Virus genome (UHGV): UHGV-1780165
Length of the DNA stretch: 34,785 nt
Strand: one strand, 5' to 3'
DNA from: a virus
Below, piece by piece: positions 8,475-11,734 of this stretch. The translations under genes were made by a program, and so were the position numbers. Numbering within the stretch: the first letter of the stretch is position 1; every line of letters begins with the position of its first letter. The notes under the pieces were generated by a model, which saw only the letters and a program-made list of their open reading frames with translations, ran no database searches and was not told where the DNA came from.

Positions 8475-8696
8475 ATGGGATATTCAGCTGCCAAAGTGTC
8501 CACTCATCTTGAGCTTGAGAAAAACCGTGGTTACTGGCGGGCAAAAGGGTTTGATCGTGATAGTTGTCAACTGTCATTATCGCGCGGTGAAGAGAAAATA
8601 GAACGCACGCGCGGTCGCTGGCGTTTCTATGACGAGAACCATAAACAGGTAAAGGCAGAGCCGATCCTGTACACTTTACTTAAAACCATTATCTGA
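8475..8696 (+). CDS. small basic protein between loxP and cre (hypothetical)
   Basis: 73-aa ORF with strong RBS (GAGGTG 7 nt upstream); ends 8 bp before cre. Confidence 0.4.
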   Translation: MGYSAAKVSTHLELEKNRGYWRAKGFDRDSCQLSLSRGEEKIERTRGRWRFYDENHKQVKAEPILYTLLKTII

Positions 8697-8703
8697 GTGT
8701 TAA

Positions 8704-9735
8704 ATGTCCAATTTACTGACCGTACACCAAAATTTGCCTGCATTACCGGTCGATGCAACGAGTGATGAGGTTCGCAAGAACCTGATGGACATGTTCAGGG
8801 ATCGCCAGGCGTTTTCTGAGCATACCTGGAAAATGCTTCTGTCCGTTTGCCGATCGTGGGCGGCATGGTGCAAGTTGAATAACCGGAAATGGTTTCCCGC
8901 AGAACCTGAAGATGTTCGCGATTATCTTCTATATCTTCAGGCGCGCGGTCTGGCAGTAAAAACTATCCAGCAACATTTGGGCCAGCTAAACATGCTTCAT
9001 CGTCGGTCCGGGCTGCCACGACCAAGTGACAGTAATGCTGTTTCACTGGTCATGCGACGGATCCGAAAAGAAAACGTTGATGCCGGTGAACGTGCAAAAC
9101 AGGCACTGGCGTTCGAACGCACTGATTTCGACCAGGTTCGTTCACTCATGGAAAATAGCGATCGCTGCCAGGATATACGTAATCTGGCATTTCTGGGGAT
9201 TGCTTATAACACCCTATTACGTATAGCCGAAATTGCCAGGATCAGGGTTAAAGATATCTCACGTACTGACGGTGGGAGAATGTTAATCCATATTGGCAGA
9301 ACGAAAACGCTGGTTAGCACCGCAGGTGTAGAGAAGGCACTTAGCCTGGGGGTAACTAAACTGGTCGAGCGATGGATTTCTGTCTCTGGTGTGGCTGATG
9401 ATCCGAATAACTACTTGTTTTGCCGTGTCAGAAAAAATGGTGTTGCCGCGCCATCTGCCACCAGCCAGCTATCAACTCGCGCCCTGGAAGGGATTTTTGA
9501 AGCAACTCATCGATTGATTTACGGCGCTAAGGATGACTCTGGTCAGAGATACCTGGCCTGGTCTGGACACAGTGCCCGTGTCGGAGCCGCGCGAGATATG
9601 GCCCGCGCCGGAGTTTCAATACCGGAGATCATGCAAGCTGGTGGCTGGACCAACGTAAATATTGTCATGAACTATATCCGTAACCTGGATAGTGAAACGG
9701 GGGCAATGGTGCGCCTGCTGGAAGATGGCGATTAG
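8704..9735 (+). CDS. cre: Cre tyrosine recombinase
   Basis: 343 aa beginning MSNLLTVHQNLPALPVDATSDEVRKNLMDMFRDRQAFSEHTWK and ending MVRLLEDGD; matches Cre as recalled. Confidence 0.98.
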   Translation: MSNLLTVHQNLPALPVDATSDEVRKNLMDMFRDRQAFSEHTWKMLLSVCRSWAAWCKLNNRKWFPAEPEDVRDYLLYLQARGLAVKTIQQHLGQLNMLHRRSGLPRPSDSNAVSLVMRRIRKENVDAGERAKQALAFERTDFDQVRSLMENSDRCQDIRNLAFLGIAYNTLLRIAEIARIRVKDISRTDGGRMLIHIGRTKTLVSTAGVEKALSLGVTKLVERWISVSGVADDPNNYLFCRVRKNGVAAPSATSQLSTRALEGIFEATHRLIYGAKDDSGQRYLAWSGHSARVGAARDMARAGVSIPEIMQAGGWTNVNIVMNYIRNLDSETGAMVRLLEDGD

Positions 9736-9785: not shown

Positions 9786-10097
9786 ATGCGGAAGGATTTC
9801 AAAATAGACGGAAAATATGTGGTGCTGTCTGTAAGCTCTCAAATTCAGTCACCATCTGTCATTGTCACCGTAAAGTTGAGCGATAGGATGCCTGATATCG
9901 ACTCGATATCTGTTGCGTTCCCCGTTAAAAGTATGCGGAGTGCTGAACATTTTGTGATGAATGCAACGGAGGAGGAAGCGCGGCGCGGGCTTACTAGAGT
10001 GATGGTGGAATTTGGCGAACTCCTGGGTAAGGTAAACAATGCCCTTTCAATCAGTTCAGCAAGATCCAAAGCGTTAACAGCTTCCATGATGAAATAA
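9786..10097 (+). CDS. cra: Cra (cre-associated) protein
   Basis: 103-aa ORF directly downstream of cre, as in P1. Confidence 0.65.
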   Translation: MRKDFKIDGKYVVLSVSSQIQSPSVIVTVKLSDRMPDIDSISVAFPVKSMRSAEHFVMNATEEEARRGLTRVMVEFGELLGKVNNALSISSARSKALTASMMK

Positions 10098-10102
10098 AAA
10101 AA

Positions 10103-10121
10103 GCCTGGCAAGGAGCCAGGC
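10103..10121 (+). terminator. hairpin GCCTGGC-AAGGA-GCCAGGC after cra
   Basis: 7-bp GC-rich stem preceded by an A-run; U-tract is on the opposite strand, so it may act bidirectionally or on antisense transcripts. Confidence 0.45.
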
Positions 10122-10228
10122 TGCACAAAAGAGCGGGTTTGTATTCCGCATCCAATCAATCAAGAAGGAGTATAGCACACAGGTACTGAAGTGAAAAAAT
10201 GTGATTCGCGATTAACAAAATATCTACC

Positions 10229-10258
10229 ATTGCTCTAATTGATTGCTATAATTAAGCC
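10229..10258 (+). promoter_or_regulatory. tandem C1 operators overlapping a TATAAT -10 element (ref promoter region)
   Basis: ATTGCTCTAATTGATTGCTATAATTAA: two overlapping operator-like copies with TATAAT inside. Confidence 0.6.
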
Positions 10259-10312
10259 GCAGTTTTTGTCAACTACGAAGACGTTGCCATTACTTAACTC
10301 CTTGACATCATT

Positions 10313-10338
10313 GGCGGCCATTAGGCCGCCTTTTTTTT
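10313..10338 (+). terminator. intrinsic terminator-like hairpin GGCGGCC-ATTA-GGCCGCC plus T8 in the ref leader
   Basis: Perfect 7-bp GC stem followed by TTTTTTTT, ending 6 bp before the ref ATG. Confidence 0.6.
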
Positions 10339-10343
10339 GCCAT

Positions 10344-10904
10344 ATGAAAACAATCGAACAAAAACTTGAACAGCGCCGCGAGTGGCAGAAGGCAGCCAGA
10401 GAACGAGCGATCGCTCGGCAACGGGAAAAGTTGGCTGACCCCGCCTGGCGAGAATCGCAATATCAGAAAATGCGGGATTCTATCGACCGCCGTATCGCTA
10501 AACAGAAAGAGCGCCCACCAGCCAGCAAAACGCGGAAAAGTGCGGTAAAGATAAAATCTCGTGGCTTGAAGGGGCGAACATCGACAGCGGAGGAACGGAG
10601 CATCGCCAATGCTCTTGGCGCTCTCCCCTGCATTGCCTGCTATATGCATGGAGTAATATCTAATGAGGTGTCTCTGCACCATATCGCCGGTCGTACCGCG
10701 CCGGGTTGTCATAAAAAGCAATTGCCACTTTGTAGATGGCACCACCAGCATGCAGCACCGGCTGAAGTAAGAGAAAAATACCCCTGGCTGGTCCCTGTTC
10801 ATGCCGATGGTGTGGTTGGAGGCAAGAAAGAATTCACCTTGCTGAACAAGTCAGAGATGGAGTTGCTGGCTGACGCCTATGAGATGGCAAACATCATGCA
10901 CTAA
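10344..10904 (+). CDS. ref: Ref, HNH-family recombination enhancement nuclease
   Basis: 186 aa from ATG 10344 (MKTIEQKLEQRREW...); Cys/His-rich HNH-like C-terminal half; the listed ORF start 10239 is an in-frame read-through of the leader. Confidence 0.85.
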   Translation: MKTIEQKLEQRREWQKAARERAIARQREKLADPAWRESQYQKMRDSIDRRIAKQKERPPASKTRKSAVKIKSRGLKGRTSTAEERSIANALGALPCIACYMHGVISNEVSLHHIAGRTAPGCHKKQLPLCRWHHQHAAPAEVREKYPWLVPVHADGVVGGKKEFTLLNKSEMELLADAYEMANIMH

Positions 10905-10940
10905 TAAATATATTATTTTTAATCTGAAATAATTGACAAC

Positions 10941-10959
10941 TGACAAGTGACTTCAGTCA
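10941..10959 (+). promoter_or_regulatory. candidate late-promoter element TGACAAGTGACTTCAGTCA
   Basis: Near-palindromic; shares the AAGTGACTT core with sites upstream of pacA, prt and lyz. Confidence 0.4.
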
Positions 10960-11065
10960 GAATCATCACATGCCCGGTACGGATGGATCCCTTTTCAAAT
11001 ATTCCATGGACGGCACAGTCTGAGTACCGGGCGCTACCTTCAGTTGTATTGCTAAGCCGCCGCTG

Positions 11066-11734
11066 GTGGCTTTTCTTTTTTGTAGGGGCGCTATGGATAA
11101 GAAAATATGCGTTGTTTCGATGAGCGTCGGTAAACCGGCGTCAATGACTGCTGCATGGATCAACAACGAGCTGATAATGGCTGAGCGGACCAGCTACCCT
11201 GAACGCCGCCGCGATATGGAACTCCAGCTGCTGCGCGAATTGCGAGAAAAAGAGGAAAAGGGTTTTATCGTGCTGGTGGAAGAGGAAAACAGCTTTATTA
11301 CTGGTCGAGTTGGCCAGCGTGTAAGGTTGCGCGATCCCTTCATGAACGGCAGGCCGGTACTAATTGAGGCCATGCAGATTTATAAGGAGCTGGAACGCCA
11401 GAAAGCAATCAAGTTACCGCGCAAGGAATCCGGCAAATACATCCTCCACCAAAGCATCTTCGATTCCGAACACGATAAAAAAGGCGATGAATTTTTCAAC
11501 ATCAACTGGAGCGAAATAACGACAGAGCATGTTCTGACGTTACTCTGTTGCTTTGCGACGGAATACAACAACGTTGCCAGCGCAGACTACATCAGGGCAA
11601 TGGCTTGTGAAGTGGATAGTCGTGATGACTCATCGCTGATAGCGTCATATATAAACATCATCAAGAAAACTCAAATTATGGGATGCGCTAGAGTTCCTCA
11701 AGGAATACTCACCGGAAAGAATAATATTCTATAA
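11066..11734 (+). CDS. hypothetical protein at the position of P1 mat
   Basis: 222-aa ORF (alternative ATG at 11093); assignment by position only. Confidence 0.45.
   Translation: MAFLFCRGAMDKKICVVSMSVGKPASMTAAWINNELIMAERTSYPERRRDMELQLLRELREKEEKGFIVLVEEENSFITGRVGQRVRLRDPFMNGRPVLIEAMQIYKELERQKAIKLPRKESGKYILHQSIFDSEHDKKGDEFFNINWSEITTEHVLTLLCCFATEYNNVASADYIRAMACEVDSRDDSSLIASYINIIKKTQIMGCARVPQGILTGKNNIL

Follow-up and report, generated by a model that had tools for sequence, protein, structure and literature searches.

The leader of the ref gene in the P1-like phage genome analysed here (the window, a stretch of 34,785 nucleotides) contains a GC-rich hairpin followed at once by eight T residues (TTTTTTTT). 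On its sequence and conservation, this element is very probably a functional Rho-independent terminator in the 5′ leader that works as an attenuator of ref. The hairpin is real and non-random, is strand-specific, is conserved in structure with compensatory changes, and is tied to a C1-type operator and promoter. It is also a rediscovery: the attenuator in P1 ref described by Windle, Laufer & Hays (1988, J Bacteriol 170:4881), a paper with deletion analysis whose title speaks of "attenuator-antiterminator control", is the same element at the same locus, and nothing essential differs between the two, the window being that of a P1 relative. Our additions to the 1988 element are modest and comprise covariation in other clades, the link to the C1 operator, the position of the predicted P1ref promoter relative to the stem, and a parallel hairpin at mat. 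The features of the region are as follows.

8475–8696: cra (P1 annotation mapped from AF234172).
8704–9735: cre (P1 annotation mapped from AF234172).
9786–10097, + strand: c8, open reading frame upstream of the ref leader, named from AF234172.
10224–10229, + strand: −35 element of P2ref (AF234172 annotation).
10229–10245, + strand: C1 operator Oref (ATTGCTCTAATTGATTG), three mismatches to the consensus; monovalent Oref in AF234172.
10244–10252, + strand: extended −10 element of P2ref, TGcTATAAT (from the sequence and AF234172), overlapped by the operator.
10262–10282, + strand: predicted 5′ stem-loop of the leader (minimum free energy folds), a structure not conserved in other clades.
10284–10311, + strand: predicted P1ref (TTGCCA at 10284–10289, 16 nt, TGaCATCAT with CATCAT at 10306–10311), 9/12 matches plus TG in our scan; "predicted sigma 70 promoter P1ref" in AF234172.
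10313–10330, + strand: terminator stem-loop with 7 G-C pairs and an ATTA loop (sequence, scans, fold and covariation).
10331–10338, + strand: T8 tract, the expected release site, polymorphic from T7 to T10 among isolates.
10344–10904, + strand: ref, open reading frame for a 186-aa RecA-dependent HNH nuclease (PF16786), with an ATG that lacks a Shine-Dalgarno (SD) sequence.

Bases 10090–10950 of the window match Escherichia phage RCS47 most closely (99.2%) and P1 (AF234172) at 96.6%. Within the ref leader (10200–10343) there are four differences from AF234172, and the hairpin stretch is identical. P1 annotation was transferred from AF234172 22–4483 (locus L001) with an offset of +8288; by this annotation c8 lies between cre and ref, where a preliminary description of the sequence had named cra. 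The Ref protein of the window is 98% identical to a "Ref family protein" carrying PF16786. The AF234172 record has no terminator annotation in the mapped stretch, which includes the ref leader, and M23246, the sequence of the 1988 study, spans the region to the end of the stem. The H-NS core motif of the ref 5′ region, CGATAAA in P1 (PMC4713147), reads CGATTAA in the window (10208–10214).

The hairpin consists of GGCGGCC (10313–10319), the loop ATTA (10320–10323) and GGCCGCC (10324–10330), with the T8 tract followed by GCCAT (10339–10343) and the ref ATG (10344–10346). The positions given in the preliminary description were exact, and only its 6-bp distance from the T tract to the start codon needs correction, to 5 nt. 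Intrinsic terminators have a GC-rich stem of 5–12 bp, a short loop, and at least six U directly 3′ of the stem on the transcribed strand only; this element has seven G-C pairs, a 4-nt loop, and T8 beginning at the first base past the stem. There is no A-tract upstream, which makes the hairpin directional for + strand transcripts. As RNA it folds at −16.2 kcal/mol (z = −3.7), a stability reached by 0 of 200 shuffled sequences, and it was the top terminator-like site in scans of both 8.5–12.5 kb and 1–18 kb. Under strict criteria (a perfect 7-bp stem, at least six GC pairs, at least seven T in eight) the window has four such sites on both strands together, compared with none in 300 dinucleotide shuffles, placing the element far beyond chance. 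The variation from T7 to T10 among near-identical P1-like isolates could tune both termination and the spacing to the ATG.

Conservation was assessed in a P1-clade sample of 82 loci with 48 distinct 130-nt leaders. The alignment-based locus search returned close relatives only and a scan of genome contigs gave three loci only; distant clades were collected individually. In the P1 clade the stem is almost invariant, and its few variants are either G.U pairs or a shortening, both at the bottom pairs, while the loop (ATTA, ATCA, TAAA), T-run, spacer and flanks vary. A sister clade with Ref about 65% identical (six loci) shares this arrangement: operator core ATTGCTCTAAT, then TATAAT, some 55 nt of diverged leader, the hairpin GACGGTC-T(T/A)CG-G(A/G)CCGTC (for example GACGGTC-TTCG-GACCGTC with T8), the T-run, and after 12–13 nt an SD-less ATG or GTG. 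In a Pantoea alvi locus (L265; Ref 60%), a C1-type operator is followed by GCCGCC-TCCG-GGCGGC with T7; here about 95 nt separate the hairpin from ref, which shows that a position next to the start codon is not conserved. The T-run is T7 to T10 in nearly all loci and T5ATT in one sister-clade locus (L268). When the leaders are aligned on the hairpin, 98.8% of cells pair and 3/7 pairs are changed on both sides, the compensatory pattern expected of an intrinsic terminator; in slid controls, 17–70% of cells were paired and at most one pair was changed on both sides.

Within 300 nt of ref, no such hairpin was found in the Ref clades that lack a C1-type operator (D6-like, Klebsiella 171-aa and Pantoea agglomerans types, and the loci L266 and L269–L272). 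Its restriction to clades with a C1-type operator indicates that the terminator is part of the C1-type regulatory module rather than of ref itself. Where Ref clades lack the terminator, an inverted repeat (GTTAGAAAATC...TCTAAC) precedes ref (L085, about 1110–1145; L269 and L271, about 525–560; L270, about 527–558), and this repeat is probably the operator of a different type of repressor.

A scan with the C1 operator consensus gave seven matches in the window (0.18 expected), and the operator core is invariant across the P1 and sister clades. The preliminary description had placed a pair of C1 operators over a TATAAT element. One operator stands at no more than three mismatches (10229–10245); the second half (10242–10258) has five mismatches and is not conserved in the sister clade, and to judge by its sequence it is a degenerate repeat, really the −10 region. 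TATAAT stands at 10247–10252 and is preceded by TGn, giving an extended −10 element that the operator overlaps. TATAAT is invariant across clades, and TG is kept with C, T or A as the middle base among P1-clade loci. By its layout P2ref would start transcription at about 10259–10261.

In the attenuation mechanism that we propose, RNA polymerase arriving from C1-repressed P2ref, or reading through from cre/c8, would mostly stop at 10331–10338 and release a leader RNA of about 80 nt without the ref start codon. The ref mRNA would come only from the fraction that reads through, and translation would begin at the SD-less ATG 5 nt past the U-run, which may serve as a landing site for ribosomal protein S1. 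Together, the terminator, SD-less initiation, and repression by C1 and H-NS would hold the dose of a toxic nuclease low even after derepression. Termination in vivo is suggested by the title of the 1988 study and by the logic of the sequence. It was argued earlier that an intrinsic terminator stands in the way of transcripts from the operator-overlapping promoter, pointing to attenuation or antitermination. This argument gains support from the compensatory conservation in three clades, where the hairpin invariably lies after a C1-type operator/promoter and before ref, and it agrees with the 1988 title.

As an alternative, the preliminary description had proposed that the hairpin ends the transcript of the genes upstream. 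Our scans found no + strand terminator between c8 and the ref-leader hairpin, and the hairpin just after c8 (10102–10122) has its T-run on the − strand only, so that cre/c8 transcripts should also run to the ref-leader terminator. The element thus probably ends these transcripts too, a role that is not exclusive of attenuation, with c8 in place of the gene originally named.

Ref, a RecA-dependent nuclease, is described as toxic to its host and as boosting ciprofloxacin killing in P1 lysogens. Because of this toxicity and ciprofloxacin enhancement, how tightly the Ref dose is controlled is relevant to phage-antibiotic synergy and to genome-editing tools built on Ref. Ronayne et al. (2016, PMC4713147) report that ref mRNA rises 73-fold after c1ts induction and peaks at 30 min, slightly later than ssb, dmt and kilA, that H-NS binds the ref 5′ region, and that Ref is toxic. 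A 73-fold induction implies that substantial read-through or bypass of the terminator occurs. For the read-through itself, we lean mildly towards a constitutive leak over an increase brought about by a phage-encoded antiterminator.

Three models remain for how ref escapes the terminator: it is leaky, a factor acts on the polymerase or promoter, or a promoter bypasses the hairpin. The comparative results narrow the choice to these because the hairpin occurs only with a C1-type operator, no RNA switch is conserved, and no motif is shared with the mat leader.

Regulated antitermination, in which a factor from P1, or an induced one from the host, alters RNA polymerase or binds to the leader and thereby lets the ref terminator, and perhaps the mat hairpin, be read through in lytic growth, is a possibility to be taken seriously, if somewhat against the odds. 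The 1988 title favours it, as does a second promoter-hairpin-gene unit at mat. Piya et al. (2023) can be counted on its side since the ref leader terminator is one of two sources that they cite for the idea of a P1 antiterminator; however, the same paper states that direct evidence from experiments is lacking for one. Its setting resembles the lambda N/nut (tR1, tL1) and Q (PR′-tR′) systems, where a phage promoter is followed by a close intrinsic terminator that has to be overridden and a short terminated RNA is a by-product. Unlike lambda N/nut, the ref leader contains no boxA-like sequence: no + strand match to boxA (CGCTCTTTA) with at most one mismatch was found in 10253–10343, and the window-wide count was at chance. 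A further difference from the N and Q systems is that no antiterminator protein is known in P1 from the papers cited here. No motif common to the ref and mat leaders was found either, as 75/300 shuffles reached the observed local alignment score, and the clades have no conserved antiterminator helix in common. These data would fit a leaky terminator just as well.

Promoter bypass, in which the hairpin only insulates ref from cre/c8 and P2ref and the productive mRNA comes from P1ref, is in our judgement unlikely. The P1ref site (TTGCCA-16-TGaCATCAT) is a reasonable candidate by its score and its AF234172 entry, and even the P1-clade leader that diverges most retains the extended −10 (TGaAATCAT). 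In the window this −10 ends 2 nt 5′ of the stem, which would place the start site at about 10317–10319 within the 5′ arm, and in such transcripts the hairpin cannot form. However, P1ref is a prediction only, its −10 is absent from the sister clade and the Pantoea alvi locus, which retain the operator-terminator-ref layout, and our scan found no + strand promoter-like site downstream of their hairpins. Moreover, ref behaves as a gene under C1 control, whereas P1ref has no operator.

We regard as improbable a reading in which the terminated leader is made for its own sake, as a small RNA of about 80 nt under C1 control, and ref is a by-product of read-through. The leader is predicted to fold into a 5′ stem-loop, a single-stranded C/U-rich linker of about 25–30 nt and the terminator with U8 (z = −4.1), although this architecture is generic. 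A CUCC/UCCU motif lies just 5′ of the hairpin in all three clades, but conservation of the linker between clades does not go beyond these 4 nt. As a precedent, the terminated late transcript of a Stx phage yields a short RNA (PMC7547250). In Rfam 15 no family reached its gathering score; the best matches (15–24 bits, gathering scores 37–75) were to Hfq-type small RNAs, but matches so far under threshold are typical of any terminator. In the stronger form, the RNA of about 80 nt would be a trans-acting small RNA of the lytic phase, with a C/U-rich single-stranded stretch that carries the conserved CUCC, and ref would be made by read-through only; this form is comparably improbable, as is the related option that ref and mat share a P1 antitermination system acting on the leader hairpins.

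Attenuation by a leader peptide or riboswitch, where an alternative fold would sense translation or a ligand, is largely refuted by the missing conserved alternative helix and leader ORF, and we give it a very small chance. As in the trp and his leader-peptide attenuators, a GC-rich hairpin with U8 in the 5′ leader would cut transcription into the gene. A possible switch exists in the window, where GUUGCCA (10283–10289) can pair with UGGCGGC (10312–10318) before the 3′ arm is made; the terminator outweighs this competitor by 9.6 kcal/mol, however, and the helix takes another position in the sister clade and is missing from the Pantoea alvi locus and one sister-clade locus (L267). The ref leader thus differs from the trp and his leaders in having no conserved antiterminator or anti-antiterminator helices, and it has no peptide ORF: of the ATG, GTG or TTG ORFs in the other two frames, none stops at or close to the hairpin, and indels that vary among isolates disrupt the upstream frame continuous with ref. 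We rejected a leader peptide or translational coupling on these sequence grounds. A DNA palindrome bound by a protein is the least probable reading of all, for although the compensatory changes keep the dyad symmetry of the DNA too, natural G.U variants are tolerated in RNA and mismatched in DNA, the T-run is conserved on one side only, and the stem sequence differs between clades while its geometry is kept.

Returning to the attenuator, the ref start codon downstream of it has no recognisable SD sequence, as first described: pairing of positions −20 to −3 with the anti-SD gave −1.5 kcal/mol (median over 30 ORFs, −4.5), and pairing is as weak or weaker in 42% of random 18-mers. Initiation without an SD through ribosomal protein S1 at U/AU-rich leaders is established, reportedly for instance in work by Boni and Komarova. 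The ref leader resembles such sites in that 13 unpaired, mostly U nucleotides precede the ATG without anti-SD complementarity; it differs in that the U-run of the Pantoea alvi locus lies about 95 nt from the ATG. The mean unpaired probability of the ref start codon (0.47–0.51) is within the range of neighbouring genes, and we rejected unusual occlusion of the start on this basis.

A wrongly assigned Ref start codon, which would have undercut the earlier argument, is not borne out, the upstream frame not being preserved and the N-terminus being conserved. Among P1-clade loci, T-runs of 7–10 and the spacers GCCAT, GACCAT and ACCTT put the upstream sequence into different frames, and a stop 18–40 nt upstream of the ref ATG occurs in many loci. 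Ref homologues with 53–66% identity start at the aligned position with MK(T/L)..(E/Q)(Q/K). We also rejected a longer Ref that would begin at the in-frame TTG at 10239, because that frame is lost among isolates and stops intervene.

A second terminator-like hairpin (11054–11081, site 11054–11095), AAGCCGCC-GCT-GGTGGCTT with TTCTTTTTT, folds at −13.2 kcal/mol. Situated downstream of Pmat/LPmat, it precedes an ATG at 11093 (MDKKICVV...) by 21 nt. The P1 record starts Mat at an upstream ATG, equivalent to 10983. The G-run at 11084–11087 is G4 in the window and 35 loci and G5 in 24–25 loci, and the upstream ATG lies in another frame, with a stop, in 44/79 loci. The probable start of Mat is at 11093, in which case mat would share the promoter/operator-hairpin-gene layout of ref.

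We also observed several features on the − strand. Leaders of the sister clade contain a − strand promoter-like site oriented toward the ref promoter (L268, 609–638; L115, 1108–1136), which reads TTGACA-18-AATTAT (10/12) in L268. The corresponding TTGACA in the window (10276 to 10271) is only 13 nt from AATTAT and is thus not a promoter there. Directly after the c8 stop, AGCCTGGC-TCCTT-GCCAGGCT with T7 (10122 to 10102) forms a strong − strand intrinsic terminator. Upstream of it lies a TG-extended − strand promoter-like site (10197 to 10169), and the two together would yield an RNA of about 65 nt; for this region (10095–10197) Rfam gave a sub-threshold match only (SorX, E = 0.011). A further − strand promoter-like site (10894–10939; TTGTCA-16-AATAAT, 10/12) abuts the C1 operator Omat and would drive antisense transcription through ref toward the terminator at 10122–10102. 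Its −35 element lies in a TTGACAA/TTGTCAA palindrome that it has in common with Pmat.
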